From assembly GCA_013286795.1 (NCBI GenBank), contig JABDFA010000001.1, forward strand, positions 104,970 through 168,969: DNA of 64,000 nucleotides, read 5' to 3'. Positions 22,692 through 38,616 of the stretch are shown piece by piece. The translations under genes were made by a program, and so were the position numbers. The notes under the pieces were generated by a model that worked only from the letters and a program-made list of their open reading frames with translations, ran no database searches and had not been told where the DNA came from. The DNA comes from Candidatus Babelota bacterium. Lineage in GTDB: Bacteria; Babelota; Babeliae; Babelales; JABDEC01. Numbering within the stretch: the first letter of the stretch is position 1; every line of letters begins with the position of its first letter.

Positions 22692-22696
22692 TCTTT

Positions 22697-23140
22697 TTAT
22701 TCTGAAATAACTTTAAGTAAAAATTTAGGTTTCAATTGGTTAGATAACTTTACAGTAACCTCAAATGAGCCTTGTTTTTTTATAGGCTTTTCTAGTTCAA
22801 CTTGATTTTTGGATATTTTTATTCCTTCTGTATCCAATAAATTTACTATGTCAGAAGAATTAATGGCACCATACAACTTTTCTTTATCATGCATTTTTCG
22901 CTTTAATGTTATCTTTAATGCTTTTATTTTTTCTGCAAGCATAGAAGTTTTGGTTGCTACTGCTTCTTTTCTATTTTCAATAGTTTTGACTTTATTAAGA
23001 TAAAGTTGCTCATTTTCATTTGTAATTACTACACCTAGTTTTTTTGGAACTAAAAAATTGGTGGCGTAACCTTCTTTAACTTTTATAATTTCTCCGGGTA
23101 TGCCTACTCTTTCTACATCTTTTAATAAAAATACTTTCAT
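22697..23140 (-). CDS. rplI: 50S ribosomal protein L9
   Basis: MKVFLLKDVERVGIPGEIIKVKEGYATNFLVPKKLG is the canonical L9 N-domain. 147 aa, directly upstream of dnaB. Confidence 0.9.
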   Translation of the reverse strand: MKVFLLKDVERVGIPGEIIKVKEGYATNFLVPKKLGVVITNENEQLYLNKVKTIENRKEAVATKTSMLAEKIKALKITLKRKMHDKEKLYGAINSSDIVNLLDTEGIKISKNQVELEKPIKKQGSFEVTVKLSNQLKPKFLLKVISE

Positions 23141-23224
23141 GGTTATCCTATAATTAATAATTTAATTAATTATAGTATACTCAAAAAAAGCAATTTTTTA
23201 AAATTTATACTAATTTATTCTAGG

Positions 23225-24337
23225 TTATTTTTGTTTTGGACAAACTGCATACTCTGAAACTATATTAGCTAAATCTGAAGGTAGATACTTATCAACAATT
23301 TTTTTAACATCTTGTCTTAATTTCTCTCTTTTTTTATATTCATTTTCTATTAGTTCTATGTTATATTCATTTCCTATACCTCTCGCATAATCTAATGCGG
23401 TTTTACCATCTTTATCTTTTAAATCTAAATCAGCACCAGCTTCTAACAAGAGTTCTACTATGACTTTATTATATTTATTAGCAGCCAACATTAAAGCTGT
23501 ATCTCCTCGATTGCTTTTAATATTAGGATTAGCACCATTTTCTAATAAAAAATTCACCATTTTATTATCTTGACTTCTTGTAGCATACATCAAAGCTGTC
23601 CACCCACTTTCGTCTTGATAATTTATATTTGTTTGATAATTTATATTTGCAGCAATTTTTTTATTACCAAACATAGCACTTTTAACTGAAGTCAATATTG
23701 AAGCTATATAACCCTCTTTATAATCCTCTTTTTTTTGTCCAATAGATTCTCGAACCTGTTCAAAATTCCTTGTTGATGCACCACCCAAGAGCATTTCATG
23801 CTGTCTTCTGTATCTTAGATATTCACGAGCTGTTTTTCCCTCTTTATTTGGTAAATCTAAATTAGCGCCTTTATGTATCAATAATTCTCTTATATCTTCA
23901 TGATTCATAATTGCAGCATACATTAAAGCTGTATAACCTTCATTATTTTGAATATTAGGGTTAGCGCCATTTTCTAATAATAGTTTTGCTGTACTATAGG
24001 CTACATCACAGCCTATATAATAGCCCTTATAAGGCCTTGATGCGACATACATTAAAGCTGTATAACCTTGATTATTTTGAATATCAGGATTAGCACCCCT
24101 ATCTAATAGTAGTTTTACTATTCCTGTATTGTATTTAAGACCACTCCACATTAAAGCTGTCCAACCATGTCTATCTTTATAATTTATATCTGCTTTTTGC
24201 TCAAGAGCTTCTTGGACAAGTTTGATATCATCAATTTCTGAACCTCTAATGAGCATTTCATTGGGTGATTCACTCATGGTATAAAGTGATCCAATAAATC
24301 CCAAAGATGTAAGCGATATCAATAATTTAAATTTCAT
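23225..24337 (-). CDS. Leader-bearing ankyrin-repeat protein (family member 5, 370 aa) with C-terminal LPSDLANIVSEYAVCPKQK
   Basis: Leader MKFKLLISLTSLGFIGSLYTM. Two ANK blocks separated by a non-ANK linker. C-terminal module ENEYKKREKLRQDVKKIVDKYLPSDLANIVSEYA. Confidence 0.9.
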   Translation of the reverse strand: MKFKLLISLTSLGFIGSLYTMSESPNEMLIRGSEIDDIKLVQEALEQKADINYKDRHGWTALMWSGLKYNTGIVKLLLDRGANPDIQNNQGYTALMYVASRPYKGYYIGCDVAYSTAKLLLENGANPNIQNNEGYTALMYAAIMNHEDIRELLIHKGANLDLPNKEGKTAREYLRYRRQHEMLLGGASTRNFEQVRESIGQKKEDYKEGYIASILTSVKSAMFGNKKIAANINYQTNINYQDESGWTALMYATRSQDNKMVNFLLENGANPNIKSNRGDTALMLAANKYNKVIVELLLEAGADLDLKDKDGKTALDYARGIGNEYNIELIENEYKKREKLRQDVKKIVDKYLPSDLANIVSEYAVCPKQK

Positions 24338-24346
24338 ATTAACCTC

Positions 24347-25276
24347 CTATGAAAGTTTTTTTTCTATTAGATCTACTATAGATTTATTTTCTTTTTCTAT
24401 TGCTATATCTAAAGCTGTGTGACCATATTGATTTGTTAAATATAAAGCAGCACCAGCTTCTAATAACAGCTTTGTTGTGTCTACTTGACTAAATGCAACT
24501 GCCAACATTAAAGCTGTATAACCTTGATTATTTTGAATATTAAGATTGGCACCATTCTTCAATAATAACTTTAATATATCTCCTTGAGCAAGCATTAAAG
24601 CCGTCAAACCATTTTTATCTTTATAATTTACATCTGCACCATCTTGAAGAGCTTTTTGAACGAGTATTATATTATTATCTTGCGCACCCTTTAAAAGCAG
24701 CTGATTTGAAGGATCTTTTTGTTTTGAATAATTTGCATATTCTAGAACTATATTAGCCAAATCTGGCAATAGATATTTGTCAGTAATTTCTTTATGAACA
24801 TTCTGTCTGAATTTCTCTCTTTTTTCATATTCTTTTTTTATTAAATCTTCTAAAGATTTATATTTTTCTTTTTTTGCAATATCTAAAGCTGTTTGACCAT
24901 ATTGATTTGTTAAATCTAAAGAAGCACCAGATTCTAACAACAGTTTTACTATAGTTTCTCGAGAAAGAGATGCAGCGAACATTAAAGCTGTATAGCCATT
25001 ATTATTTTGAATATCAGGATCAGCGCCATTATTTAATAACAACTTTGTCATATATAAATTTGCAGCACTCATTAAAGCTGTATTACCATATATATTTTTA
25101 TAATTTACATCAGCTTTCTTTTTAAGGGCTTCTTGAACAAGTTTCATATCACCATTTTCAGCGCCCCTAACAAGCATTTCATTAGGAGTTTCATATCGGA
25201 TGAATGTTTCTTCCAGTGTATAAATTGACCCAATAAATCCCAAACAAATAAATATGAATAATAATTTAAATTTCAT
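24347..25276 (-). CDS. Two-module ankyrin-repeat protein (family member 6): a complete leader-ANK-motif unit fused in frame to a second, leaderless and motif-less ANK unit
   Basis: Leader MKFKLLFIFICLGFIGSIYTL. The internal module KKEYEKREKFRQNVHKEITDKYLLPDLANIVLEYANYSKQK (motif at nt 24734-24772) is followed by DPSNQLLLKGAQDNNIILVQKALQDGADVNY, which resembles the mature N-terminus of other members. The protein ends DLIEKKLS. Confidence 0.9.
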   Translation of the reverse strand: MKFKLLFIFICLGFIGSIYTLEETFIRYETPNEMLVRGAENGDMKLVQEALKKKADVNYKNIYGNTALMSAANLYMTKLLLNNGADPDIQNNNGYTALMFAASLSRETIVKLLLESGASLDLTNQYGQTALDIAKKEKYKSLEDLIKKEYEKREKFRQNVHKEITDKYLLPDLANIVLEYANYSKQKDPSNQLLLKGAQDNNIILVQKALQDGADVNYKDKNGLTALMLAQGDILKLLLKNGANLNIQNNQGYTALMLAVAFSQVDTTKLLLEAGAALYLTNQYGHTALDIAIEKENKSIVDLIEKKLS

Positions 25277-25441: not shown

Positions 25442-25888
25442 TCAATTGCTAATTATAAACTTTTGCAAAGGCTTATTTTGTTCAAAAACTAACTCTCTAT
25501 GAATATTCGTTTTAATTATTATTTCATTCTCGCTACCTGATTCTACCGTTAATGCTTCAATAGATAGCTCCGGATCATTTTTCTTTAATTTCAAAAGAGC
25601 ATCGTAATTTATTATATCACCATCCGGCCAATTTCCCTTAAAAATCACTTTTTCTGAATGATTTTCATATTTTTCTATGAGTGCATAATTATTTATACAA
25701 AAGTATGTACCAAACTTACAAAGAGCTTCTGTGGCCCTATATTGTTTTTCATATGTATATTTTTTTGCAACAGAATCCTGTAAAAGTGCTATATTTTGCC
25801 AATAATTAATAAAATATAGAGATATTATCGACAATACAAGTACTAAAACCAAAACTACAAAACCTTCTTTGTTTTTCATAATATTCAC
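25442..25888 (-). CDS. Hypothetical membrane-anchored protein, possibly a degenerate pseudopilin (last gene of the minor-pilin cluster)
   Basis: N-terminus MNIMKNKEGFVVLVLVLVLSIISLYF has a G-F-hydrophobic stretch but lacks the Glu/Asp at +5. The call rests mainly on context with the two upstream prepilin-like genes. Confidence 0.35.
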   Translation of the reverse strand: MNIMKNKEGFVVLVLVLVLSIISLYFINYWQNIALLQDSVAKKYTYEKQYRATEALCKFGTYFCINNYALIEKYENHSEKVIFKGNWPDGDIINYDALLKLKKNDPELSIEALTVESGSENEIIIKTNIHRELVFEQNKPLQKFIISN

Positions 25889-25917
25889 ATTCTAAAAATT
25901 CTAAGACTATGTTAGCT

Positions 25918-26412
25918 TTATATAGAAATAAGAAATACTTCTGATCTAGTAGACACAAGATTTTCAATTTTTTGCAAAAAGTTGTTTATTTTAAATTCTA
26001 TAGTTGTTTTTAAGAGCTTTTGATTTTCACTGACCCTAAATTCTAATCTATGTATATCTTTAGCGACCAGACTTTCGGTTTTATCTGCCCAGGTATCATT
26101 CATGGGATTATATTTTCCTATAGTTCTATACAGTCTATCTTGATCTAACTTCCAACCCACTTCATGATCTTTAGTTGAAAAAATTATTTCCTCCCTTTGT
26201 TGTTTTTTATAGCCATGATATAAACATTGGCGAATATCGTTATCTAAGAGATCAAGAGCTGTCCAGTACATTGTTTTTTGTGTGCAATTTTTGTATTTCG
26301 AGCCGTATTTACTATAGTTTTGTGCAGCAAACTGAAATATGGTCAAAATTAATAGCGAAGAAAGAAATATATATATTAATGTTTCTATTAATGTAAATCC
26401 TAAAGATTTCAT
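25918..26412 (-). CDS. Prepilin-type N-terminal cleavage/methylation domain protein (minor pseudopilin, GspJ/PilW-like size)
   Basis: MKSLGFTLIETLIYIFLSSLLILTIF is the canonical G|FTLIE prepilin peptidase motif followed by a hydrophobic helix. 164 aa. Confidence 0.7.
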   Translation of the reverse strand: MKSLGFTLIETLIYIFLSSLLILTIFQFAAQNYSKYGSKYKNCTQKTMYWTALDLLDNDIRQCLYHGYKKQQREEIIFSTKDHEVGWKLDQDRLYRTIGKYNPMNDTWADKTESLVAKDIHRLEFRVSENQKLLKTTIEFKINNFLQKIENLVSTRSEVFLISI

Positions 26413-26771
26413 ATTATTATTGCTGTTATCATACTTATTTGATGCTCTTTTTCTGTTTTCCAGTATGTGTTTATTTTTAGAACAATGAACTTATTTATGG
26501 TATTTTTCAAAATCTCAATTTTTATAGTAAAAATATCTACTTTTATCTCTTTTCTATCATATATTTTTATTTTACTGCCATTAATCTCTTCTATTATATT
26601 GTTTGAGATGTTTAACGCTCTTCTAAATAAATCTATCTCTTTCTCTTGTTTTATAAGTTGCCAGTTAGCGCAGGCCATAGATAAACAGATTATTGAAAAT
26701 ATTCCAATTGAAATTACTAGATCTATTAATAAAAATCCGCTATAATTATAAATATGATTATTGTTATACAT
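26409..26771 (-). CDS. Pseudopilin-like protein (GspI/PilV-like size) with a degenerate prepilin motif
   Basis: ...YSGFLLIDLVISIGIFSII: G-F-L-L-I-D, with Asp in place of Glu at +5, followed by a hydrophobic helix. 120 aa, with a 4-nt overlap with the downstream pseudopilin gene. Confidence 0.5.
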   Translation of the reverse strand: MYNNNHIYNYSGFLLIDLVISIGIFSIICLSMACANWQLIKQEKEIDLFRRALNISNNIIEEINGSKIKIYDRKEIKVDIFTIKIEILKNTINKFIVLKINTYWKTEKEHQISMITAIII

Positions 26772-26831: not shown

Positions 26832-28712
26832 ATGAGATTTTTTAAATTTTTATTTATTTTATTTTTTTGCATTTTAAATGCTTCAAATAATTTATTTTCT
26901 TTGGACCCTTTTCATTTGTCTCCAGAAGATGCCAAATTTATTGATGAAATCTTAGGAACGATCCCTCCGGAAGAAAGAGATCAAATTAAAGGTCAGATTT
27001 TTGAAGAAGTTAATCGCTTTCAACAGATGACTCCACAAGATCAGGATCTTTATCTTCAAAATAAATTCAAAGAAATGGAAACCCTTACAACTAGTCCACA
27101 ATCTCCACAAGCGCCAAATCTTGGTCCAAATGAAAATGCTGAACCCATTAGTACAAAATTTCAAGAGACAGAATCAATCGCACCCGAATCTATATCTATA
27201 ACGCCTAAGATCGCAACCTCAAAAGCTGATACAAATTTATTAACTATTTTAGAATCATTATCTGATTCAATAGATTTATTGTTAATTAAGGTTAAAGCTC
27301 TGCCCAGAGTATCACAACAAAGAAAAGTTGAAAAAGAGTGGCTCAAGTTAAAAGCAGATTTACATGATCTAGAATCTTATCTTCGCATTGTTATATTTCA
27401 AAAAAAGGCATTGAAAGCTTTGTCATCAGATGAGTATAAAAATTTAAAAAATAATTTGAAAACTCTAGAAAGTAATCTTTCTGGCTTAGTTGAGAACTTG
27501 AGTATTTATTTACCAGATACAGCCGGACTAACTATTTCTTTTGGAGAAGAGGATTTTAGTGTCGAAAAAAAGAATGAAAGCAAGGCACAAAAAATATTAT
27601 CAGACATTATGTCATTACTAACAAATAACCTTGAAAGCAAAAATATTAATGAAGATCTAAAATCTTTATTAAAAAAACATGCCCCTGAAGAATTAAAAAA
27701 GAAAGAATTACCATTGGCTCCAGAACCGTATATGTCAGCTCAACGTAGTTACACCTCCCCTTCTTTTGGTGGTGGCGGTGGCTATGATTACAACCCAGGC
27801 TATTACCCTTACCGCCCTTCTTTTGGCGATGGTGCCGGTTCTACTCCATCAACACAGGGCGCTACCAAGTCAGGTTTAGAAACAAAAGATGAATCTAAAA
27901 AAGATAAAGGTGGTACTAGTGGTGGTGGTGGTGGCAAAGGCAAAGGTGCCTCAGGCGTTCCAGACAAGGATAAAGATAAGGACAAATCCAAAGACAAAAA
28001 AGAGGATAAAGACAAAGAAAAAGATAAAGACAAAAAAGAAGATAAAAAAGATAGTAAAGATAAGGTAAAAAAGAAAACAAGATCTGCTGCACAGAAAAAA
28101 AGATCTAAGTATGGCAATCCTGAAATAGAGGCATTTTTAAGAAAGCTAGAGGATTATTTAGTTGAATTTTCAAATTTAGTAGACAAAGACTCTGTAGACA
28201 TTTTACTTAAAGGTGAAGATAAAAAAATAAAAGATGATTTCAAAAAAGCAGCTGGTCTATATGATAATCATATACTAAAGTTATCAAGCCATATAGGAAA
28301 ACACTTAGGAAATCTACATAAAGACGCTAAACCTTTATTAATGAAGTCTATCAAGGAAATTTATGATGATCCTGATTACGAGCTTGAAAAGACTTACAAA
28401 AAAATTAAGACTTCTTTATTAATTCTTGAAGGTCAAGATTTAAAGGGTGACCAAAAAGAACAAAAGCGTATCTTAGAAGATCTTAATGCTAAGATGATTC
28501 GACTCAAACAGGATCTAGGTTTAGAGCCTAAGCAAAATGTTGCAACTCAACAACAATTTGGTAGTCCGGTTACAAGCAACCCTGACCTAGCTCAAGGTAA
28601 TACAGATGTTGAATATGAAGTCGAAGGTGATGGTCCAATGTTTGATAATGATGGCAACGCTTATTTCTCTAATTTGGATCAGGATAAAATATCAGATAAA
28701 CTAGGAGCGTAG
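26832..28712 (+). CDS. Large exported low-complexity protein (626 aa) with a G/Y/P-rich segment and a (K/D/E)n tract
   Basis: Signal-like MRFFKFLFILFFCILNASNN. Central FGGGGGYDYNPGYYPYRPSFGDGAGS, then GGGGGKGKGASGVPDKDKDKDKSKDKKEDKDKEKDKDKKEDKKDSKDK. No family recognised. Confidence 0.6.
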   Translation: MRFFKFLFILFFCILNASNNLFSLDPFHLSPEDAKFIDEILGTIPPEERDQIKGQIFEEVNRFQQMTPQDQDLYLQNKFKEMETLTTSPQSPQAPNLGPNENAEPISTKFQETESIAPESISITPKIATSKADTNLLTILESLSDSIDLLLIKVKALPRVSQQRKVEKEWLKLKADLHDLESYLRIVIFQKKALKALSSDEYKNLKNNLKTLESNLSGLVENLSIYLPDTAGLTISFGEEDFSVEKKNESKAQKILSDIMSLLTNNLESKNINEDLKSLLKKHAPEELKKKELPLAPEPYMSAQRSYTSPSFGGGGGYDYNPGYYPYRPSFGDGAGSTPSTQGATKSGLETKDESKKDKGGTSGGGGGKGKGASGVPDKDKDKDKSKDKKEDKDKEKDKDKKEDKKDSKDKVKKKTRSAAQKKRSKYGNPEIEAFLRKLEDYLVEFSNLVDKDSVDILLKGEDKKIKDDFKKAAGLYDNHILKLSSHIGKHLGNLHKDAKPLLMKSIKEIYDDPDYELEKTYKKIKTSLLILEGQDLKGDQKEQKRILEDLNAKMIRLKQDLGLEPKQNVATQQQFGSPVTSNPDLAQGNTDVEYEVEGDGPMFDNDGNAYFSNLDQDKISDKLGA

Positions 28713-28912
28713 GCTGCCAAAAAATTTACCCTGTAATACCTCCTTTTTAAAAATTTTTTAAAGCCGGAGCCTTGCGACGCCTATAAGAAGTTTACATGAA
28801 GCGTGCTTTAACGTTATGCGACAATCAACTCTATAAGCCCTCCCGGTTTTAGTCAAGATGCTCATTATGCGACATTAATCGCATTATTTCGAATCCTGCG
28901 GCTGACTCTTGC

Positions 28913-28941
28913 TTGACTATTTCTGCATTACATGCTATAAT
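28913..28941 (+). promoter_or_regulatory. Near-consensus sigma70 promoter for the ANK gene at 28981
   Basis: TTGACT (28913-28918), a 17-nt spacer, then TATAAT (28936-28941), 40 nt upstream of the GTG start, which is preceded by GGAGGG. Confidence 0.6.
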
Positions 28942-28980
28942 TGCTATTAGATAATTAGATCTGTAAAATATGGAGGGCTT

Positions 28981-29784
28981 GTGAAAAAATTAATTTTAAC
29001 TTTATCATTAATCGCTTTATCAACGTCGTTATTTACAATGGAGGAACAACCTGCAAAAAAACACAAGGGCTGCTTATCAAGAATTCTAAATTTTAGACAA
29101 AATCAAAGAGAACTAAAAGATATAAAAAAAGAGTTAGCTAACTTAAAATTAGCTGCAGCTAAAACAGTAGAAGAAGCTCAAGCAGCAATTAAAGAAGGAG
29201 CAGATATCAATAAAAAAGAAAATGGCCGCACTCCATTAAGTTTCGCATTAATTCGTTGCGAACCACAAGTAGCAGAATTTTTAATAAATATGGGCGCAGA
29301 TATACATAGCAAAGATGAAAATGGCAACTCATTTGTAACTAATGCATTACATGGAGAATGTTATGACGTAGCTCGTTTGCTTATTAAAAAAGGTGTTGAT
29401 GTCAAAAATGTATCAACTCTAAACACTGCAGTCAATAGCGAACAGATAGATCTAGTAAAAATGATATTAGACAAAGGAGTAAACATTAACTCACAAAATG
29501 AATATGGTATAACACCTCTTATGAATGCTATAAAACAAGGAAATTTAGAAATGGTTAAGTTTCTTGTTAATAACGGGGCTGAAATTGATATTAAAGATAA
29601 AAATGGCAAAACAGCCCTAGATTATGCAAGACAAAGCGATAATCAAGAGATTATAGAATTTTTAGATAATACATATCGACCATTTTTAACAAGCAAAATT
29701 TTAGAAGTTACAAATTTAATACCAGATGTTGCCAATATAGCTTCAGACTATTGGTCCAGCACTCCTGAAGAAATAACTATTTAG
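28981..29784 (+). CDS. Leader-bearing ankyrin-repeat protein (divergent family member 7) with C-terminal LIPDVANIASDYW motif
   Basis: GTG start after GGAGGG. Leader (M)KKLILTLSLIALSTSLFTMEEQP. ANK units (RTPLSFALIRCEPQVAEFLINMGADIHSKD, ITPLMNAIKQGNLEMVKFLVNNGAEIDIKD, KTALDYARQSDNQEIIEFL). Confidence 0.85.
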   Translation: MKKLILTLSLIALSTSLFTMEEQPAKKHKGCLSRILNFRQNQRELKDIKKELANLKLAAAKTVEEAQAAIKEGADINKKENGRTPLSFALIRCEPQVAEFLINMGADIHSKDENGNSFVTNALHGECYDVARLLIKKGVDVKNVSTLNTAVNSEQIDLVKMILDKGVNINSQNEYGITPLMNAIKQGNLEMVKFLVNNGAEIDIKDKNGKTALDYARQSDNQEIIEFLDNTYRPFLTSKILEVTNLIPDVANIASDYWSSTPEEITI

Positions 29785-29864
29785 AACAAGAATGTTGATT
29801 TTTCTATTTGTATTTGATATCATATATTATAGTAAGTATAAAATATAAAAAATATGGAGGATTT

Positions 29865-30323
29865 ATGAAAAATTTAAAGTTAACTATTTTAACAATTACT
29901 CTATTAATCTACATACCTTCAGTATTTACAATAGATATGGATGTAGATGAACAAACAGAACAGACAAAAAAAGAAATATTAAACAAATTAGAATCAGGTG
30001 GCCTGTATACCGACCTATCAAATATAATTCTAGATTATGTTGGCAGCATAGAAGACCTGATATTAAATGCCATGCTTTTAGATGCTGCAAGAAATCTTGA
30101 TACCAAGCTTATTTATAAAGCTGTTAAATTAGGCGCAGATGTTAATGCTAAAGATGCAAAAAATTATACGGCGTATGATTATATTGAGAAGGCTTATAAA
30201 AAGTTATATGGTAATGGTTCGCATATAAATCCAAATGATATAGATGCATTAACTGAATACTCTAATTTAATGCCATTTTTAAAACCCAAAAAACCCGTAG
30301 AATACGAAAGCATTTGGTATTAA
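29865..30323 (+). CDS. Small leader-bearing protein with an N-terminal LYTDLSNIILDYV motif followed by one or two ANK-like repeats (family member 8)
   Basis: ATG 29865 is preceded by GGAGG (the track start at 29808 is unsupported). Leader MKNLKLTILTITLLIYIPSVFT. LLDAARNLDTKLIYKAVKLGADVNAKD is ANK-like. Confidence 0.65.
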   Translation: MKNLKLTILTITLLIYIPSVFTIDMDVDEQTEQTKKEILNKLESGGLYTDLSNIILDYVGSIEDLILNAMLLDAARNLDTKLIYKAVKLGADVNAKDAKNYTAYDYIEKAYKKLYGNGSHINPNDIDALTEYSNLMPFLKPKKPVEYESIWY

Positions 30324-30337
30324 AATATATAAAACTG

Positions 30338-30688
30338 TCATTTTATTTTATGAGTACCAAGCTTATGTTTAGCTAGTGCGCCCATATGTTGAAATTTGCA
30401 TCCACAATCACAGACACAACTTCCTGAAACTAAGTGGTACTTTTCATGTCTTTGAACATTTGATTTTAAATTCGAAGAATATTGATACCCATTAATACAA
30501 TATCTACATTTAAATTTCTTTTCAGAAATAGCTGCTGCAGAAACTTTAGATTTAATATAGCGTTTAATAAGATCACTTTTTATTTTTTTACTCTTATCTA
30601 AAGTTTTAGCTTTAACTTGAGCAAACTCTTCCATGCCAAAAATAGTTAAGTGAAAATTTAATAACAAAAAAAACAGTTTAATTTTCAT
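30338..30688 (-). CDS. Leader-bearing protein with two C2H2-type zinc fingers
   Basis: Leader MKIKLFFLLLNFHLTIFGMEE. Finger 1 is CRYC-INGY-QYSSN-L-KSNVQR-H-EKY-H. Finger 2 is C-G-C-K-F-QHMGA-L-AK-H-KLGT-H, with the aromatic-x5-Leu-x2-His spacing of classical C2H2 fingers. Confidence 0.7.
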   Translation of the reverse strand: MKIKLFFLLLNFHLTIFGMEEFAQVKAKTLDKSKKIKSDLIKRYIKSKVSAAAISEKKFKCRYCINGYQYSSNLKSNVQRHEKYHLVSGSCVCDCGCKFQHMGALAKHKLGTHKIK

Positions 30689-31052
30689 TTTTATTAACCT
30701 CTTGTTTAATTGAATTTAATACATCAGTAAGTTCTGAATCGCTAAGCGTATACAATGGATAAATTTTATTATGTGTAACAAAATTTTGATGCTGTTCGAT
30801 AAGATTATATAATTTTTTTATTTGAATAAGCCTGTCAGGATTATGCTTAGAATGCAATTGAAGACAATATGAATAAATTTTATTAAGTTGGCCTCCAGAA
30901 TATTTTCTATCAAAGCGCTTTAAGCCAAAAAAATTATAAGCTAATTCTTTTTCAGAACCAGAGCTAAAAGATCTTAAAAATGTTCTTTGCATGCCAGTTA
31001 AGGGGATAAAAAAGTTTAAGAAAATTAAATTTAAAATGAAAATCTTTTGCAT
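30678..31052 (-). CDS. Small leader-bearing hypothetical protein with weak J-domain-like similarity
   Basis: Leader MQKIFILNLIFLNFFIPLTGMQ. AYNFFGLKRFDRKYSGGQLNKIYSYCLQLHSKHNPDR loosely follows the J-domain pattern YY..LGl......eIkkAYrkLa.kyHPDk, but with HNPD instead of HPD and extra residues. Confidence 0.5.
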   Translation of the reverse strand: MQKIFILNLIFLNFFIPLTGMQRTFLRSFSSGSEKELAYNFFGLKRFDRKYSGGQLNKIYSYCLQLHSKHNPDRLIQIKKLYNLIEQHQNFVTHNKIYPLYTLSDSELTDVLNSIKQEVNKNEN

Positions 31053-31115: not shown

Positions 31116-32222
31116 TTAAGAATTATTTTTAACAAAATTCAAGATTAGACCAATCATAGTCATACTGCAAATCAGAGAAGATAGGCCGTAACTAACAAAA
31201 GGTAACCCAACGCCTTTAGTAGGCAAAAGACCAGTAACAACGCAAAAATTAATTAATGCTTGTAAACTAATAAGAATTATAAAACCTAATCCTGCAAAAA
31301 GAGAAAAATTATCTTCTAACTTAAGAATAATGCGTAAACCAAAATACAAAAACAAGATAAATAATAATATTAATAGAAGAGAGCCCAGAAAGCCTGTTTC
31401 TTCAGCAATAATTGAAAAAATAAAATCTGTATGTTGCATAGGAAGATAAAAGAATTTCTGTCGAGAATTTGAAATACCTACGCCCCAAAAATTGCCAGAA
31501 CCTATAGCAATCAATGATTGAATTATTTGAAATCCGGACCCTAAAGGGTCCTTCCAGGGATCTAAAAAAGTAAGAACACGTTTAAATCTATATGGTTTAT
31601 ACAAAATTAATACAATGGATCCTAAAAATGCCATAAATACTGTTAATATCAAATATTTAATTTGATAATTCGCTATAAATAATAAAGAAAAAATTGTAAC
31701 ATAAAGAGCTGCAGTTAAACCAAAATCAGGTTGTCTTAGAAGTATTAATGCAGTGATTCCCAAAATTAATAAAAGAGGCAGAAAGTTTTTAAAGAAAGAA
31801 CCATATTTGTATAGCTTTTTATCAAGAAAATATGCCGTGTACATCATTAAACCTATTTTTATTAATTCACTAGGCTGGAAGGCAATACCTCCCAATGAAA
31901 GCCATCGATTAGAGCCATGTATCTTTAAAGAAAATTGAGGAATAAGAGTAAGGGAAGTTAAAAGTAAAGAAAATAGAAAAAAAGCAGGTGTGAATTTTTT
32001 TATGAAATTTAAAGGCAAATTAATTGTTATAAATATAGCAAATAAGCCTAATATAAATCCTAAAAATTGTTTTCTAACAAAAAAGGAAGCTTGTCCCATT
32101 TTTTCTAAAGCAAAAACAGAGCTGGATGAATATATAAAAATAAAGCCCACTAATATTAAGAGCAGTATAATTGCTAGAAAAATTTTCAAATCAAAGGCTA
32201 ATTTCTTTTTCTCCAATAACAC
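31116..32222 (-). CDS. ftsW: SEDS-family peptidoglycan polymerase FtsW/RodA (FtsW by dcw context)
   Basis: Ten-TM profile. GS.RW...G.I.FQPSE..K, LRQPDFG and the P..HTDFIFS.I.EE.G..G motif. Located directly downstream of murD. Confidence 0.88.
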   Translation of the reverse strand: MLLEKKKLAFDLKIFLAIILLLILVGFIFIYSSSSVFALEKMGQASFFVRKQFLGFILGLFAIFITINLPLNFIKKFTPAFFLFSLLLTSLTLIPQFSLKIHGSNRWLSLGGIAFQPSELIKIGLMMYTAYFLDKKLYKYGSFFKNFLPLLLILGITALILLRQPDFGLTAALYVTIFSLLFIANYQIKYLILTVFMAFLGSIVLILYKPYRFKRVLTFLDPWKDPLGSGFQIIQSLIAIGSGNFWGVGISNSRQKFFYLPMQHTDFIFSIIAEETGFLGSLLLILLFILFLYFGLRIILKLEDNFSLFAGLGFIILISLQALINFCVVTGLLPTKGVGLPFVSYGLSSLICSMTMIGLILNFVKNNS

Positions 32223-33591
32223 TACTTTTTTCCTTTTTTATTTTTTCTACAACTAATCTTTTGAAACTTGAACCTCTCTGATCATAATTGGCAAACAAAT
32301 CAAAGCTAGAACCTGCCGGTGAAAATAAAACTTGATCACCTGATTTAATTAATCCAAAACAAATGTCTATTGCATTTTGCAAATTACCACTACTATATGA
32401 TTCAATATTATTCTTTTCACACCAAAATTTTAATTTTTCAGCCTCGGCTCCAAAGCATATTATTTTTGTTACTTTATTTTTTAAACTACCTATAAAATTA
32501 GATCTATCTACCCCTTTAGATAGGCCACCTAGAAATAAAATTGTAGGTTTAGAACAAAGTTTGTTAACAGCTGCCATTGTAGAATTGGCAAGTGTTGATT
32601 TTGAGTCATTATAGAAATCAACATTAGAATATGTAATAAATTTTTCTAATCTATGTTCAGGCAATATCAAATTTGTAAAATCTATATTACTTAAATCAAT
32701 TTTATATAAATACAAAGTTGAAGCTATAGCTAACCAATTTTCATCAAATGTTATTTTAGGAAATTCAAAAGAAGATACGAATGTAATCTCATCTCCTTTC
32801 AGTTTAAGCAAATATCCATCTTCTACAAAGAAAAGTTTATCTTCGGGCCCCATTAATTTTAATTTATCATCTTCAGGCTTATTTAGAGAAAGAAAATTTA
32901 AACTACTTTTTACATTTCTTTGTGATATATTTCCAATTATTTCAAAAGGTAATAATGACAATTGTGCTTGAGATTGATTTTTTAAAATTTTAAACTTAGC
33001 ATCAAAATATGACTCTCTATCACCATGCCTATCCAAATGATTATCATGAAAATTGGTCCAGACAGAAATTTCAGGAGCAAATCTTTTACAATACTCAAGT
33101 TGAAAACTTGAAACTTCAATTAAAGCAACATCTATTTCATCCTGCTTTAAAATTAAATCACACATGCCAATACCAATATTACCTGCGGCAACAGCACGTA
33201 TATTTTTTAATTTTAAAATCTCACAAATCAAATGGGTTATTGTTGTTTTTCCAAGCGAGCCGGTTACAGCAATTATTGGTTTTTTAAAGTTATCAAAAAA
33301 CAGATCCAATTCAGATAAAAATTTATCACTAAAATTAGGGGCCAATTTTAAATCCACCCCGGGACTAGGCACTATTAAATCATTTTTTGCAAGAAATTTT
33401 TCTAAATCTTTGTCTTGGTGCAAAAAATTTATCTTGCTAGAAAAGTTTAAAGATTCAACTTTGGAAATAACTTTGCTGTCTAAAATCTCAAAATCTATTT
33501 TATTTGCTGCAAAGTAATTTGCGATCGATTTGCCAACTACGCCAAATCCCCATATTCCTATTTTTTTATTAAATAAATCTGCTAGATTCAT
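32191..33591 (-). CDS. murD: UDP-N-acetylmuramoyl-L-alanine--D-glutamate ligase
   Basis: N-terminal Rossmann IGIWGFGVVGKSIA. Mur ligase P-loop IIAVTGSLGKTT. EVSSFQLE. C-terminal domain with LFSPAGSSFD.F.NY..RG..F. Confidence 0.92.
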   Translation of the reverse strand: MNLADLFNKKIGIWGFGVVGKSIANYFAANKIDFEILDSKVISKVESLNFSSKINFLHQDKDLEKFLAKNDLIVPSPGVDLKLAPNFSDKFLSELDLFFDNFKKPIIAVTGSLGKTTITHLICEILKLKNIRAVAAGNIGIGMCDLILKQDEIDVALIEVSSFQLEYCKRFAPEISVWTNFHDNHLDRHGDRESYFDAKFKILKNQSQAQLSLLPFEIIGNISQRNVKSSLNFLSLNKPEDDKLKLMGPEDKLFFVEDGYLLKLKGDEITFVSSFEFPKITFDENWLAIASTLYLYKIDLSNIDFTNLILPEHRLEKFITYSNVDFYNDSKSTLANSTMAAVNKLCSKPTILFLGGLSKGVDRSNFIGSLKNKVTKIICFGAEAEKLKFWCEKNNIESYSSGNLQNAIDICFGLIKSGDQVLFSPAGSSFDLFANYDQRGSSFKRLVVEKIKKEKSSVIGEKEISL

Positions 33592-33601
33592 TTTTTTAAC
33601 T

Positions 33602-35149
33602 CTATTTCCAGTTCATTGCAAGTTCAACGAGTAATCTAACCCCTGCTCCTGTTCCAGAATGATTTCTATAATAAGATATATCTGGCACATTGAATGCAGT
33701 ACCTGCTATATCAAGATGTACCCAAGGAACTTCTCCAACAAAATTTTGTAAAAAACATGCAGCTGTTGTACCGCCTGCCATATATCTTCGATTTGAATCA
33801 TTGCTTAAATCTGCAACCTCACTTTTAACTGCAATCTTATAATCATCCGTAAGTGGCAGTCTCCATACATAATCACCTGACAAATGCGCTGCTTCTTCAA
33901 CTTTTACAGCAAATTCATCATGTTCACTAAACAAACCAGAAAAGAATGGTCCAAGAGCATAAGCACATGCACCTGTCAAGGTTGCCAAGTCAATCATAAA
34001 ATCCGGTTTATAATGTTTAACTGCATAAGAAAGGGCATCTGCCAAGATCAATCTTCCTTCAGCATCTGTATTTTTAACTTCTGCCGTTTTGCCATTGTAG
34101 AAAGTTATTATATCTCCTGGTCTAGTAGCCGAACCACTTGGCATATTTTCAGTTATTGGAGTTATAGCCACAATATTAACTTTAGGTTTCAATTTAGCAA
34201 GAGCTGACATAGCAGAAATAACAGCAGCCGATCCTGACATGTCCTCCTTCATTGTTTCCATAGAACCTGAAGGTTTTATGCTAAGTCCGCCAGAGTCAAA
34301 AGTTATACCTTTGCCAACAAAGCAAATTGTTGGCGCTGTTTTTTCAGTTTTATATTCTAAAATAACAAATTTACATTCTTCTTCTGAACCCTTTGTTACT
34401 GCAGCCAAACCTCCCATACCCATTTTAATTATTTCAGATTCACTAAAAATTGTGCATTTCAAACCATGATCGATTGATATTTTCTGTGCATAATTTGCAA
34501 GATCTGTCGGAGAAAGTAAATTAGCTGGTAAATCGACCCAAGTTCTGGCTTGATTTACAGCATTAGATATAACAATACCATCATCTACAGCTTTTTTTAT
34601 TTTATCAATATCTCTATTTACAACAATTTTTATATCAGCATCTGACTCTAATTTAGATATTCTAGTCTTATCTGTAATCAATTGATCAAAAACATAATTC
34701 GCCATATTAATTATAATTGCAGTGTTCTTTGCAACATATTCTATATCAAAACCAAACAGATCTGCTTCAGGCAATTCTAGAGCAATAGATTTAATATTAA
34801 ATTGTGGCAAGGTTCTTATTAAACTACCTAAAGATCTTCTATAACTTTCAAAATTAAAAATATTTTTTTTATTTTTTTTACCCAAACCTACAAAAACCAA
34901 ATATGAATGATTTATATTAGCGACTACAGAAGCTACAAAAACTGACCCACTTTTACCTACAAATTTCTTATCTCGCATTAATATTTCTAAATGTGGACAG
35001 TTCTCTTTTGCTAAATCATGAAATTTTTTAAAATCAAAATCCTGTTCAACAAAAAAAATGACAGCATTAACCTTATTTTCTAAAAGCTTAGTTTGGGTAA
35101 CTGAAATATTTAATGACATAAATTCTCCACAAATAATCTGTATGCACAA
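33602..35149 (-). CDS. pepA: Leucyl aminopeptidase (M17 family)
   Basis: VGKGITFDSGGLSIKP, MKEDMSGSAAV and the signature NTDAEGRLILADAL, then DLATLTGA. The true start is probably MSLNISV at 35119. Confidence 0.93.
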   Translation of the reverse strand: MCIQIICGEFMSLNISVTQTKLLENKVNAVIFFVEQDFDFKKFHDLAKENCPHLEILMRDKKFVGKSGSVFVASVVANINHSYLVFVGLGKKNKKNIFNFESYRRSLGSLIRTLPQFNIKSIALELPEADLFGFDIEYVAKNTAIIINMANYVFDQLITDKTRISKLESDADIKIVVNRDIDKIKKAVDDGIVISNAVNQARTWVDLPANLLSPTDLANYAQKISIDHGLKCTIFSESEIIKMGMGGLAAVTKGSEEECKFVILEYKTEKTAPTICFVGKGITFDSGGLSIKPSGSMETMKEDMSGSAAVISAMSALAKLKPKVNIVAITPITENMPSGSATRPGDIITFYNGKTAEVKNTDAEGRLILADALSYAVKHYKPDFMIDLATLTGACAYALGPFFSGLFSEHDEFAVKVEEAAHLSGDYVWRLPLTDDYKIAVKSEVADLSNDSNRRYMAGGTTAACFLQNFVGEVPWVHLDIAGTAFNVPDISYYRNHSGTGAGVRLLVELAMNWK

Positions 35150-35219
35150 TATGTTACATCATTTAATATTACCAACTACACCCTTAAAAACAAGACTTGA
35201 AAAAAAAATCTCAGTAGTG

Positions 35220-36254
35220 TTAATCAGGACTGCGAGTAACAAGAGATTTTGGTTGTTTAAAAATGGTTTTATTTAAAACGCTTTTAAAAAAAGCATTAAC
35301 AGTATACATATATCTTTCTGGATCAGAAAAGACTGAATCACAATGATCCCTACCCCCGGTTATCCATAACCTCTTATAACCAGCAGCATTATTAAAAATT
35401 TCAGTAACAGCTTCAACAGTAATTTTTGCATCATTTTTGCAAACAACAAAATAACACGGAACCGTCACTTCTTTTATAGATTCAACAGGCTCTATAGGTT
35501 TTACAAAAGTTTGTATAGGAGAAGACATTCCCGCCCCTTTTAATAAGAACATAATAAGAGGTTGCACGTAAGGATTAAATGCATATTCTTGTAACCAACC
35601 CGTACCTGGAATATAAAATTCATAACCAAATAAACCTAATTTTACTTTTTCCATACCCCTACGTAGTACATCTTTACTAGAAGAAAATGGCGCATCTAAA
35701 AACATTGCTTCAAACAAATTAGGAGTATTCGCTTCTTTAATAGCAGAATATTGTTCTTTGAAATCATTATATTGAGCTTGTGCTTCAATCGCTGTAGCAG
35801 CACCCATTGAATGAGCAAAAACAAATAAAGGTTTATTTTTAAAATCTTCTAAAGATCTTAAATAATCTACTGCTGCAAAAACATCCAAAATTTCATCTGA
35901 CCCTACTGTGCTAAGTTGATCTTCTTTATTTTCACCATGAGCCCTAAAATCAAAAGACATACAATTAAAATCTTTTAAGAACAAGCTAAATGGACCAACA
36001 TCAAATTTATCTCTTCCATAACCATGCAATACTAGAATAGTAGCAGGGGCTTTTCTGTCTGCTAGAATACCCTTACGCGCTATATACTCATTAGATTCTA
36101 AATTCTTTTTAACATAAAAAACAACTTCTCTGGTCCCTTTACCTTTTTTTATACTAGATTTTTTTTCCTTTGAAATAATTAAATTACTATTAAATAAAAA
36201 ACAAAATAATAAAAAAAGTCTAAAAAAATAATGATTTTTTAATAACATGTCCAT
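35220..36254 (-). CDS. Exported alpha/beta-fold hydrolase
   Basis: Hydrophobic leader. HGYGRDKFD, the nucleophile elbow FAHSMGAA, and late D (KND) and H (GGRDHCD) candidates for the catalytic triad. Confidence 0.7.
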   Translation of the reverse strand: MDMLLKNHYFFRLFLLFCFLFNSNLIISKEKKSSIKKGKGTREVVFYVKKNLESNEYIARKGILADRKAPATILVLHGYGRDKFDVGPFSLFLKDFNCMSFDFRAHGENKEDQLSTVGSDEILDVFAAVDYLRSLEDFKNKPLFVFAHSMGAATAIEAQAQYNDFKEQYSAIKEANTPNLFEAMFLDAPFSSSKDVLRRGMEKVKLGLFGYEFYIPGTGWLQEYAFNPYVQPLIMFLLKGAGMSSPIQTFVKPIEPVESIKEVTVPCYFVVCKNDAKITVEAVTEIFNNAAGYKRLWITGGRDHCDSVFSDPERYMYTVNAFFKSVLNKTIFKQPKSLVTRSPD

Positions 36255-36328
36255 GTTATCCCCCTTAAAATACAGTGAAATTTACGAAAAATTATATCTA
36301 ATTATTAATATTACAAATTTAGTAATTA

Positions 36329-37786
36329 TTAATCAATAAATTGTCCAAAGAAAGATTCCATTTGTTGCTTTTGCATGACATCATTATAGCGTGCAACAAT
36401 TTGGCCACCTTTAAATACAATGAAAGAGGGTACTTTGAGTATATATAATTCTTTTACCAATTCTGGCGCTTTATCAATATCAACTTTTATAAATTTCATT
36501 TTACCTGAAAACTTTTTAGATAAAGACTCAAATGAAGGAAGCATTTGCTTACATGTAGGACAATGATTGGCCCAAAAATCTAAAACTACCGGAATTTCGC
36601 TTTCAAGAACCTCTTTTTTATATTCATCCAAAGAACTTATACTAGTAACTTTAGAGGGACCTATTTCACTGATTTCAAAATACTTATTTTGAATTTTATT
36701 GGCTACTTCAGGGGAAAAGCCAATTTCTTGCAAAAATCTAGATGCATCCAAAGCTGCCTTAATGCCCGAACCTGATGCAACGCCCGCCTGTTTATAGACA
36801 TGGTCCTCTACGTCTCCTGCTGCAAAAACAGCTTCAACTGATGTTTTTTGACTACGGCCCTCTAATTCTAGATACCCCATTTTATCCATCTTTAATTTAT
36901 CTTTAAAAATTTGAGTATTCGGCTCATGACCTATAGCTAAAAAGACCCCGTCTATATCCATATTAATTTCTTTATTTTGTTTATTATCCCAAAGAACAAT
37001 AGATGTTACATGGGAATCATCACCTATAATTTTTTTCAGATCTTGATTATATAAGATAGCTAAACTCTTAACATTTTTTAAGTGATTAATCATGGCCTGC
37101 GAAGCTCTTAAAGCACTACCTCTGACAAGCATAGTTATTTTATTAACATAAGGATTAAGTTGTAAAACTTCCTCAGCTGCAGAATCACCCCCACCTACGA
37201 CTACAACATTTTTATTTTTAAAGAATGGAGCATCACATACAGCGCAAGTAGTAACTCCTTTCCCCCAATATTCCTTTTCGCCAGGTATGCCTAAAACTCT
37301 TGGATTAGAACCTGTTGCTACTATTACAGTTAGGGCATTAATTTTCAGTCCATCTGATGTTATAACTTCAAATGGCCATTTTGCAAGATCAACAGATACC
37401 ACTGTATCTTGTAAAAAAGAGACTCCTAATTTTTGATTCTGTTCCTTTAAATCCTCCATCAACTTTGGCCCCATAATACGTTGTATACTTGGCCAATTTT
37501 CTACATAAGTGGTTCCTGTTAGTTGTCCACCCGGCTTTTCCCCTTCTATAATTAGAGTTTTAAAACCTAATCTAGAAGCATATATACCTGCACTCATTCC
37601 TGCTGAGCCTGATCCTAAAATAACAACAGGCATTATATTCTCTTTTTTTGTAATCTCATTTATATTTATATTTAAATGTTTACAAAAGTTACAGCCTGTT
37701 TTTTTATAAAACAAAACTAATGAAGAAGTAATAAATACAGTAAATAAAAGAATTAAAAAACGAGTAGATTGATTAATCACTAACAT
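36329..37786 (-). CDS. trxB: Thioredoxin reductase fused to a C-terminal thioredoxin domain (NTRC-like), with an N-terminal TM helix
   Basis: FAD motif VVILGSGSAGMSAG, redox CAVC (TTCAVCDAPFF), NADPH motif VVVVGGGDSAAEE, and FAAGDV. C-terminal Trx fold with WANHCPTCK. The ATG at 37786 is preceded by GGAG at 5-nt spacing, which supports the TM extension MLVINQSTRFLILLFTVFITSSLVLFY. Confidence 0.88.
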   Translation of the reverse strand: MLVINQSTRFLILLFTVFITSSLVLFYKKTGCNFCKHLNININEITKKENIMPVVILGSGSAGMSAGIYASRLGFKTLIIEGEKPGGQLTGTTYVENWPSIQRIMGPKLMEDLKEQNQKLGVSFLQDTVVSVDLAKWPFEVITSDGLKINALTVIVATGSNPRVLGIPGEKEYWGKGVTTCAVCDAPFFKNKNVVVVGGGDSAAEEVLQLNPYVNKITMLVRGSALRASQAMINHLKNVKSLAILYNQDLKKIIGDDSHVTSIVLWDNKQNKEINMDIDGVFLAIGHEPNTQIFKDKLKMDKMGYLELEGRSQKTSVEAVFAAGDVEDHVYKQAGVASGSGIKAALDASRFLQEIGFSPEVANKIQNKYFEISEIGPSKVTSISSLDEYKKEVLESEIPVVLDFWANHCPTCKQMLPSFESLSKKFSGKMKFIKVDIDKAPELVKELYILKVPSFIVFKGGQIVARYNDVMQKQQMESFFGQFID

Positions 37787-37964
37787 ACTAACTCCAAAAA
37801 TGTATACATAAAAGTTTCAACTAACAAGCTACATTTAATTCTTAATAAATTCAAATAAATCTTGCTATTAAATAAGTTTAATTTTATTTTGAATAATACA
37901 CGAACCCAATAATTAATTTATATATTAAAATTAATATCCTTGTTTTTGAGCTAAATAAATATAG

Positions 37965-38016
37965 CCCGTTCGTGGTGAGTGTTTTTGCGCCAGCAAAAAT
38001 ATATCGAACCATGAAC
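37965..38016. repeat. GC-rich nested inverted-repeat element (same family as 12155-12246)
   Basis: Outer arms are GTTCGTGGT (37968-37976) and ACCATGAAC (38008-38016), with 1 mismatch. Inner arms are TTTTTGC (37982-37988) and GCAAAAA (37993-37999). Contains CGAACCATGAA (38005-38015). Confidence 0.5.
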
Positions 38017-38068
38017 ACAAATAAAATACGGTTTTAATAATTTTAATTCTCTAAAAAGTAAGGAAAGT

Positions 38069-38377: not shown

Positions 38378-38417
38378 ATATACAAATCATAGATACCATT
38401 CTTTTATCTTGCTTATG

Positions 38418-38446
38418 AAATTGTCCAACAGCTTGTTGGACAATTT
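38418..38446 (+). terminator. 13-bp perfect hairpin downstream of 38069-38377 (probable terminator, weak T tail)
   Basis: AAATTGTCCAACA (38418-38430), loop GCT, TGTTGGACAATTT (38434-38446). The sequence is related to the hairpin at 38495-38513. Confidence 0.45.
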
Positions 38447-38485
38447 GAAGAACTTCTCATATTTAGTATTTTCTCCAGGGTGCTT

Positions 38486-38513: not shown

Positions 38514-38616
38514 AATTTATTTGTTCAGACACGAAAAATCATATTTAGATTAAAATGTATAATAAATTAGAGCCACTTTTACATGGCCTTTATAATATTT
38601 AAGCAACTTGAGTATA

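Follow-up and report, generated by a model that had tools for sequence, protein, structure and literature searches.

The window analysed here, a 64,000-nt stretch of a Candidatus Babelota contig, contains on its minus strand (30338-30688) a small gene whose product, as judged from its sequence, combines a Sec-type export leader, a Lys-rich linker and two eukaryote-type C2H2 zinc fingers. Leader-bearing C2H2 proteins with two to seven fingers, several of them with TGEKP-type linkers, are recognizable in three other lineages of the Dependentiae, and by alignment the window protein is the shortest and most diverged member of this recurrent leader-C2H2 architecture. The initial annotation had proposed a leader-bearing protein with two eukaryote-style fingers; the open reading frame (ORF) of 116 aa was present on the minus strand exactly as quoted there, and homology searches, shuffling controls and conserved ligands bore out the description of its product. 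The features of the gene are as follows.

30338-30688, minus strand: coding sequence for the leader and two C2H2 fingers, 116 aa, ATG start, stop included (ORF list and sequence)
30698-30703, minus strand: Shine-Dalgarno-like hexamer AAGAGG, 9 nt 5' of the ATG at 30688 (read from the sequence)
30635-30688, minus strand: Sec-type leader MKIKLFFLLLNFHLTIFG, residues 1-18 (hydropathy profile and shared leader type)
30626-30634, minus strand: Met19-Glu20-Glu21, proposed mature N-terminus (conserved Met-Glu/Gln motif at the leader end)
30518-30625, minus strand: Lys-rich linker, residues 22-57, isoelectric point (pI) 10.2, with KKIK at residue 34 and KKFK at 57
30434-30514, minus strand: finger 1, residues 59-85, F-K-C61-x2-C64-[INGY]-Q-Y70-x7-V78-x2-H81-x3-H85 (alignments to proteins L019, P0045-49 and L018)
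30419-30433, minus strand: inter-finger linker LVSGS, residues 86-90, at the position of the canonical TGEKP
30350-30418, minus strand: finger 2, residues 91-113, C91/F-x-C93-x-C95-G-C97-K-F99-x5-L105-x2-H108-x4-H113

The 116-aa ORF is a real gene under purifying selection. Measured by the Nei-Gojobori method against the allele of a sibling strain, its ratio of nonsynonymous to synonymous substitution rates (dN/dS) was 0.12 overall (leader 0.056, linker 0.29, fingers 0.089), compared with 0.067 for FtsW and 0.10 for MurD; the synonymous rate (dS) across the finger region was 0.73. An identical 116-aa protein exists in public collections together with one sibling of 117 aa (89% identity), and the same bacterial genes flank the gene in all three independent assemblies. 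Local G+C content (GC) was 0.28-0.31 in 2-kb windows around the gene, and the whole window has 30%. An upstream leader-bearing gene of 124 aa shares 11 nt with the zinc-finger ORF, so that the two are probably co-transcribed, and the AAGAGG hexamer, which sits within the last codons of that upstream gene, precedes Met1 and thus marks Met1, not Met19, as the likely start; no Shine-Dalgarno-like hexamer was found ahead of Met19. A scan for promoters and terminators gave matches no commoner than in shuffled sequence and found no terminator. The isoleucyl-tRNA synthetase (IleRS) of the window shares 52-63% identity with its counterparts in metagenome-assembled genomes (MAGs) that carry the label Dependentiae, Babeliales or TM6, and no more than 47% with those of other phyla; judged by sequence, the host is a Dependentiae (TM6/Babelota) bacterium.

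Homology of the C-terminal half to C2H2 fingers was seen at several levels of comparison. In a phmmer search of the PDB, residues 55-109 aligned to tandem fingers, with PRDM9 at 1.9e-7 and HIC2 at 1.3e-3, where the PRDM9 value is a sum over repeats whose individual stretches had E values of 0.15-0.5. An exhaustive HMMER scan of 1.84 billion representative sequences returned 43 matches at E <=1e-3 through residues ~55-110, all of them long multi-stretch proteins, and the nine that we checked were without exception poly-C2H2 by Pfam. Within the phylum, BLASTP aligned residues 59-116 to the two-finger Dependentiae protein at L019:3514-4098 with 31% identity (E 6e-7), and hhalign of the two small families gave a probability of 93.7% (E 1.9e-7). 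When four bona fide Dependentiae C2H2 proteins were compared with residues 51-116 by BLASTP, the score was 38.1 bits, a value reached by 0/1000 composition-preserving shuffles and by 0/1000 shuffles with every Cys and His fixed; the failure of the latter means that the similarity exceeds ligand spacing alone. A regular expression (regex) for tandem C2H2 fingers matched 10 of 6664 ORFs in 1.5 Mb where shuffles gave an expectation of 0.2, and nine of these ten are the window gene, its copies, or C2H2 genes of three other Dependentiae lineages. The tenth match, in L005, was rejected as an antisense ORF with a spurious Cys/His pattern.

Conservation of the Cys and His positions, on which the initial annotation had staked its proposal, held throughout: in an alignment of 16 sequences all eight proposed ligands (C61, C64, H81, H85, C93, C95, H108 and H113) were invariant, as was L105. 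With that alignment, AlphaFold2 (AF2) modelled residues 51-116 at a predicted local distance difference test score (pLDDT) of 80 as strand-strand-helix twice, a result that is partly circular in that the alignment consists of zinc-finger proteins. The strands of finger 1 in this model span residues 59-60 and 71-72 and its helix residues 75-86; in finger 2 the strands span 91-92 and 98-99 and the helix 102-113. With a 2-sequence alignment, AF2 placed a low-confidence helix in the Lys-rich linker.

Read through these alignments, residues 58-116 comprise two eukaryote-type C2H2 fingers, each with one indel. Finger 1, into which the KKFK of residue 57 continues, reads in full F59-K-C61-x2-C64-[I65 N G Y68]-Q-Y70-S-S-N-L-K-S-N-V78-Q-R-H81-x3-H85. 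Its 13 residues QYSSNLKSNVQRH pair with PFSTNRKSNIERH of the L019 protein in the BLASTP alignment, which identifies Y70 as the conserved aromatic and V78 as the core aliphatic residue. The register Y68-x5-L74-x6-H first assigned to this finger is therefore replaced by Y70-x7-V78-x2-H81-x3-H85, and the longer helix that went with it is also withdrawn, the four extra residues I65-Y68 being placed by alignment in the hairpin loop after the CxxC knuckle. Compared with the last finger of the L018 protein, finger 1 is 50% identical over 32 aa (SEKKFKCRYCINGYQYSSNLKSNVQRH-EKYH / NEKLFKCKY--EGCNYSTNYRQNLKRHTEKLH), and the second Cys of the C-x4-C knuckle in that L018 finger pairs with Tyr68 of the window protein, a pairing that suggests that the finger 1 ligand shifted to position 64 during divergence. 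Between the fingers, LVSGS lines up with the HTGEKPF of P0045-49 and of eukaryotic fingers (alignment A2).

For finger 2, the core F99-x5-L105-x2-H108-x4-H113 stands as first described, and the Cys pair has been reassigned from C95/C97 to C93/C95, which probably is the correct pair and fits the classical register. The residue after C93 is Asp (C93-D-C95), and C95-G-x-x-F fits the classical C-G-x-x-F. By this match C95 becomes the second ligand, and the first is C93, in a C-x-C knuckle that lacks one residue of the classical length. The sibling keeps C93, C95 and C97 and has Phe in place of C91, so that its F-T-C at the start of the finger is the classical aromatic-x-Cys. C97 is also conserved, and C93/C97 or C91/C95 (C91 not being conserved) may be the pair instead. 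The hydrophobic core consists of Y70, V78 and H81 in finger 1 and F99, L105 and H108 in finger 2. Relative to C-x2-4-C-x12-H-x3-5-H, the ligand spacing is C-x2-C-x16-H-x3-H in finger 1 and C-x1-C-x12-H-x4-H in finger 2.

At the other end of the protein, the leader fits the usual description of a Sec-type signal peptide cleaved by signal peptidase I (SPase I), which we took to mean a basic n-region, 7-15 hydrophobic residues as the h-region, and a small or aliphatic residue at each of -1 and -3, and judged by inspection. Its n-region is MKIK and its h-region LFFLLLNFHLTIFG, the hydrophobic core spans 14 residues, and positions -3 and -1 ahead of Met19 are Ile and Gly; there is no lipobox Cys. 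Kyte-Doolittle hydropathy averages 1.4-1.9 across residues 1-19 and falls off thereafter. The same leader ending is found on five paralogs at 18844-25276, on the ankyrin gene at 28981 and on the upstream 124-aa gene. A leader of this type ending just before Met-Glu/Gln is phylum-wide in Dependentiae and specific to them (...GSLYTMEE, ...TIFGMEE and ...LPLIGMEEE are examples): of 793 ORFs from Dependentiae, 16 had a leader followed by M-[EQ]-x, compared with 3 unconvincing cases in 2641 ORFs of other phyla, and among leader-x[EQ]x cases the residue at x before [EQ] is Met in 24%. This Met-Glu/Gln at the leader end may serve as a site for SPase, as a second motif for sorting or as an alternative start. 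Its loci in the window are 18844-25276, 28981-29784 and 30338-31052, and others are L006:7004-7345, L007:4134-5886, L010:2213-3394, L014:8573-11166, L025:4636-4965 and L033:5348-6127.

We infer export and cleavage because the leader is common to the ankyrin paralogs and because published SignalP/Phobius predictions exist for Dependentiae ankyrin proteins (PMC4378268, PMC6561590). Signal peptides are carried by 44% of the coding sequences of Chromulinavorax (PMC6561590, PMC4378268) and by 79 of 126 ankyrin proteins in Babela and 78% of those in Chromulinavorax (PMC4378268, PMC6561590). Secretion into the host cytoplasm has been proposed for the Babela ankyrin proteins (PMC4378268, PMC6561590), and of secretion systems Babela has yielded one of type II (T2SS) and no other (PMC4378268). 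The members of the phylum in culture live as obligate intracellular parasites of protists (PMC6561590, PMC4378268).

A search for relatives of the same architecture, which the initial annotation had recommended, was productive: proteins with a leader and canonical fingers that passed the PF00096 cutoff were found in other Dependentiae at L019 (194 aa), L018 (347 aa) and L033 (268 aa and 184 aa), all annotated merely as hypothetical proteins. The L019 protein (L019:3514-4098, 194 aa), which PF00096 matches at 41 bits (cutoff 25), carries, besides the leader MKKLVLSFLVVFGSLYSFEEG and an acidic linker, the basic-looking patch KKTVKVKKK and a pair of canonical fingers with HTGEKPF between them; it has five orthologs (P0045-P0049), and its gene lies ~2 kb from ftsW. 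The L018 protein (L018:678-1721, 347 aa) has the leader MKKLLLVLLLSTGLYASQEE and five fingers, is encoded directly downstream of ftsW on the same strand, and has relatives P0086, P0087, P0096 and P0188; its MAG (GCA_964433415.1) contains at least five leader-C2H2 paralogs at three loci. In L033, leader-C2H2 genes at 463-1269 and 1278-1832 form part of two to three tandem paralogs with 3-7 fingers. This array (L033:1-1832) adjoins a 315-aa ORF at L033:1909-2856 that is tyrosine-recombinase-like by eye (R...HxLRH...Y-type motif), and the locus may be mobile or recombination-prone.

L006, L018, L021 and L033 are titled "uncultured Pseudomonadota bacterium", yet IleRS identities of 56-63% group all four with Dependentiae, as do FtsW identities of 56-60% for L006, L018 and L021, and the Pseudomonadota titles are probably taxonomic mislabels. 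GC is 31-34% in L018 and L033 and 37% in L006; for several Pseudomonadota-labelled records among the best matches, a GC of 31-35% likewise groups them with Dependentiae.

Outside the phylum, ~20 proteins of Endozoicomonas sp. 4G match the L018 query, some of them named "C2H2-type zinc finger protein" by NCBI; the Endozoicomonas matches run from P0090 to P0183 (sp. 4G, 6.0-Mb chromosome) and include P0122 (Endozoicomonas euniceicola). The two that we read, P0090 and P0095, combine an N-terminus resembling a signal peptide with an acidic region and an array of 7-8 fingers of the CDHEGCNYST type with HLPADQRPKKPK linkers. In the L018 search the Endozoicomonas proteins rank above named eukaryotic proteins, an order that hints at bacterial transfer or a shared donor.

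What the window protein does is a matter of about evenly balanced judgement, and the function that we prefer is that of a very basic small protein, exported by Sec and T2SS, that would bind host nucleic acid, most likely DNA. This reading draws on architecture, charge and analogy with the Dependentiae ankyrin proteins and the fungal MoHTR effectors. The mature protein would have 11.2 kDa, a pI of 9.8 and 22 Lys plus Arg against 7 Asp plus Glu, and K(K/R)x(K/R), a weak motif, occurs at residues 34 and 57, a density of 2.0 per 100 aa where the window's housekeeping ORFs have 0.2; small size, basic charge and the density of this motif make nuclear access and nucleic-acid binding plausible. The protein would be translated from Met1, probably on a transcript shared with the upstream leader-bearing gene, exported via Sec as an unfolded chain with the leader cut just before Met19, and released into the host cell by the T2SS or by vesicles. 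There the mature protein would fold around two zinc ions, enter the nucleus either by diffusing or with the help of its K(K/R)x(K/R) patches, and bind nucleic acid, most likely host DNA, with altered host gene expression as the outcome. Of these steps, we infer export past the inner membrane, the cleavage site, zinc binding, the host or nuclear location and the DNA ligand.

A number of observations weigh against this reading. The Pfam zf-C2H2 profiles, to which the initial annotation had looked for support, gave none: no C2H2 model reached its cutoff, the best being PF13909 (E 0.16), with 12 bits where its cutoff demands 27, and PF00096 was not reported for the window protein. A single-finger hidden Markov model (HMM) built from bona fide Dependentiae fingers scored it at -5 bits. 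Both miss the fingers because of the one indel in each, and for the single-finger HMM bias correction contributes as well. NCBIfam gave nothing relevant and holds no curated bacterial family for the protein. The beta-beta-alpha fold, which had also been put forward, appeared twice with the 16-sequence alignment and was lost with a 2-sequence alignment (pLDDT 57, no finger 1), and the model is circular to the extent that it appears only with an alignment of zinc-finger proteins; in a Foldseek search of the PDB with the predicted fold, the top 50 matches were all tandem C2H2 structures, at non-significant E values of 0.12-2. Both fingers deviate from the defining ligand spacing, each by one indel from canonical, and zinc binding could on this account be reduced or lost in one or both. 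At position -1 of the finger 1 recognition helix, inspection of the alignment shows Leu where the L019 protein has Arg. Two fingers alone confer weak DNA specificity, and Lys-rich motifs are cheap in a genome of 30% GC. To our knowledge, export into the host, beyond the periplasm, has not been demonstrated for any Dependentiae protein. Finally, there was no close homolog beyond the sibling strain in 5.8 billion proteins or in JGI metagenomes, so function cannot be carried over from an ortholog; among the matches listed by a word-indexed protein search, a contig scan and two metagenome scans, the relevant ones were the protein itself and one sibling strain, the first of the metagenome scans having used patterns from the leader peptides only, with noise as its listed matches.

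Several other explanations have to be set beside a secreted nucleic-acid binder. The zinc-finger fold might be exported and yet be no nuclear DNA binder, binding instead protein, RNA or lipid, or acting in the periplasm or on the surface, which we think rather unlikely. C2H2 fingers also mediate protein and RNA contacts, the window protein has just two of them, both atypical, with Leu instead of the Arg of L019 at position -1 of finger 1, and the neighbouring leader-bearing proteins consist of protein-binding ankyrin repeats; the strongly basic mature protein (pI 9.8) and the canonical arrays and TGEKP linkers of the relatives, which resemble DNA-binding arrays, argue for DNA, as does the action of the fungal analogue MoHTR2 in the host nucleus (PMC12488382). 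That the protein is instead a decaying remnant of a multi-finger ancestor, with zinc binding gone and the gene either kept for another reason or being lost, is less probable still. Such decay would account for the indels at ligand-spacing positions in both fingers, the failure of Pfam, the loss of the TGEKP linker, the pairing of Tyr68 with the second Cys of the last L018 finger, and the position of this protein as the shortest member, with 2 fingers against 5 in its positional counterpart in L018. It is hard to square with a finger dN/dS of 0.089, as low as that of FtsW and MurD, and with the conservation of the proposed ligands and core residues, both in the sibling and across the 16 aligned sequences, despite a dS of 0.73.

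The leader, too, can be read otherwise, as an uncleaved membrane anchor or as a segment skipped when translation starts at Met19, in which case the protein would be a regulator inside the bacterium or at its membrane. Met19 lies exactly at the leader end, which makes a leaderless isoform formally possible, and prokaryotic C2H2 regulators do exist (Ros/MucR, cited in PMC12491435); we nevertheless consider this improbable, as the Shine-Dalgarno-like hexamer stands before Met1 with none before Met19, the leader itself is under purifying selection (dN/dS 0.056), the 14-residue core with its basic N-terminus would put the C-terminal domain outward, Pfam gave no Ros/MucR match, and the same leader is found on ankyrin proteins, for which a cytoplasmic bacterial role is not plausible. 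We give almost no credence to an artefact, whether a spurious ORF in which Cys and His fall into such a pattern by chance or a piece of eukaryotic DNA wrongly assembled into the contig. Apart from the fact that Pfam does not recognize the protein, everything speaks against it: the same bacterial flanks in three assemblies, the overlap with the upstream gene, a GC that matches the window, purifying selection, significant shuffle tests and a Dependentiae-type leader. A chance pattern or contamination was discarded on the regex-versus-shuffle counts, dN/dS and the BLASTP shuffles.

The initial annotation placed the gene in a run of four small leader-bearing genes (28981-31052), and its neighbours are indeed leader-bearing genes of a host-interaction type. 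The immediate neighbours are as follows.

31116-32222, minus strand: ftsW, the synteny anchor (Pfam FTSW_RODA_SPOVE)
30678-31052, minus strand: leader-bearing gene of 124 aa, overlapping the zinc-finger start by 11 nt, with a homolog only in the sibling strain
29865-30323, plus strand: leader-bearing gene of 152 aa, convergent with the zinc-finger gene, weakly ankyrin-like, absent from the sibling
28981-29784, plus strand: leader-bearing ankyrin-repeat gene of 267 aa (Pfam Ank_2 2.5e-41), absent from the sibling L002

Counted downstream from ftsW, the zinc-finger gene comes second and has the same orientation. A J domain, which had been suggested for 30678-31052, was rejected: neither Pfam nor the PDB gave a DnaJ signal, and the motif is HNPD, not HPD. 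Comparison of positions 28713-30337 of the window with L002:10355-10544 showed that the ankyrin and ankyrin-like genes are missing in this sibling, which is 89-92% identical; there, a 621-aa protein follows 190 bp after the zinc-finger gene. By sequence comparison this difference is a recent indel in an effector-type island.

Further along, the five leader-bearing paralogs at 18844-25276 have near-identical leaders (MKFKLL..GFIGS[IL]Y[TS]M..), and both of the two that we checked are ankyrin-repeat proteins by Pfam; ORFs 21324-22691 and 22697-23140 are interspersed among them. Between this ankyrin array and the leader-protein cluster lie three small genes (25442-26771), two of them with prepilin-type N-termini (MKSLGFTLIETLIY..., ...YSGFLLIDLVISIG...), for which the N_methyl Pfam model scored 19.6 bits, below its cutoff of 21.2; they probably encode minor pseudopilins of a T2SS or type IV pilus. 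A 626-aa leader-bearing protein with Gly-rich and KDKDK low-complexity segments and no Pfam domain (26832-28712) is conserved in the sibling and has weak similarity alone in three other Dependentiae loci. From 31116 to 41475, the genes IleRS ... PepA-MurD-FtsW are all on the same strand, an order unlike that of the Dependentiae loci L004-L025; in most relatives MurD-FtsW lies upstream of and divergent from IleRS, with variable small leader-bearing ORFs beside ftsW.

Intracellular bacteria are known to deliver proteins of eukaryotic type into host cells, among them ankyrin, F-box and SET-domain proteins, and the classical C2H2 finger is the commonest DNA-reading module of eukaryotes. That Dependentiae have repeatedly joined an export leader to C2H2 arrays would add to this what looks like an undescribed class of host-directed proteins, and the finding is of more interest at the level of this family than for the degenerate window gene. 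If such proteins are nuclear, they would be sequence-reading effectors with targets predictable from finger composition, and they would offer a handle on host control by uncultured protist parasites. The window gene is the most degenerate member, and its canonical relatives are the better entry points for experiments. A wider proposal, which we advance tentatively and think more apt to fail than to hold, is that Dependentiae and Endozoicomonas, independently or by transfer, secrete a family of C2H2 arrays with Sec leaders that bind DNA and reprogram transcription in the host; the arrays would have come from eukaryotes and diversified as fingers were gained and lost. If this were true, they would be a bacterial counterpart of the fungal MoHTR effectors, a functional parallel to TAL effectors and the first bacterial effectors on the eukaryotic C2H2 fold, and the window gene would be a minimal two-finger version retained in the slot beside ftsW.

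Among the systems available for comparison, the leader-C2H2 proteins of other Dependentiae (L019, L018 and L033), on low-GC contigs, have the same order of leader, linker and C-terminal C2H2 array as the window protein, and their leader is of the same type. The finger 1 motif KSN[VI][QE]RH is common to the window and L019 proteins, and FKC[RK]Y..G..YS.N to the window and L018 proteins. These relatives have canonical fingers that pass Pfam cutoffs, usually after an acidic low-complexity linker, whereas the window protein has a basic linker, one indel per finger and no TGEKP. The C-x4-C fingers of Endozoicomonas sp. 4G (CDHEGCNYST...LKRHKQTH) resemble those of L018 and, more distantly, window finger 1; this bacterium is a gammaproteobacterial animal symbiont with a 6-Mb genome, and its proteins have 7-8 fingers by strict pattern and a C-terminal basic KRKK tail. 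Zinc-finger proteins are enriched in the Endozoicomonadaceae genus Kistimonas according to a passing note in a 2025 review (PMC12491435). The Ros/MucR regulators are likewise bacterial Cys2His2 DNA binders, yet they are cytoplasmic, lack a leader and have a single finger of different spacing in a larger globular domain of ~58 residues; membership in this family was rejected for the window protein, which has two tandem units and a leader and gave no Pfam ROS_MUCR match at E <=10.

Signal-peptide-bearing eukaryote-like proteins in Dependentiae and bacterial eukaryote-type C2H2 proteins in databases are already known. In the literature searched we found no description of Dependentiae C2H2 proteins and no characterised bacterial effector on the classical C2H2 finger, the sole related mention being the remark on zinc-finger enrichment in Endozoicomonadaceae, and zinc fingers go unmentioned in the Babela and Chromulinavorax papers (PMC4378268, PMC6561590). 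The eukaryotic Krueppel-type factors PRDM9, HIC2 and Zif268 are alike in their two-finger sequence, their aromatic/aliphatic/His-x3-4-His core and the predicted beta-beta-alpha fold; the window protein differs from them in being bacterial, with an export leader, two fingers, C-x2-C-x16-H and C-x-C spacings, and LVSGS in place of TGEKP. Closer in presumed role are MoHTR1 and MoHTR2 of Magnaporthe oryzae, which are secreted by an intracellular or biotrophic pathogen and act on transcription in the host nucleus (PMC12488382), MoHTR2 being a host-nuclear effector of 110 aa with a signal peptide and C2H2 finger (PMC12488382). These are fungal, use the eukaryotic ER route and have been validated experimentally in rice, and we claim no relationship in sequence between them and the window protein. 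The signal-peptide ankyrin proteins of Babela massiliensis and Chromulinavorax destructans share the leader type and the proposed Sec and T2SS route (PMC4378268, PMC6561590); their cargo is eukaryote-like too, but it is a protein-binding repeat, whereas that of the window protein is a fold of the nucleic-acid-binding type.

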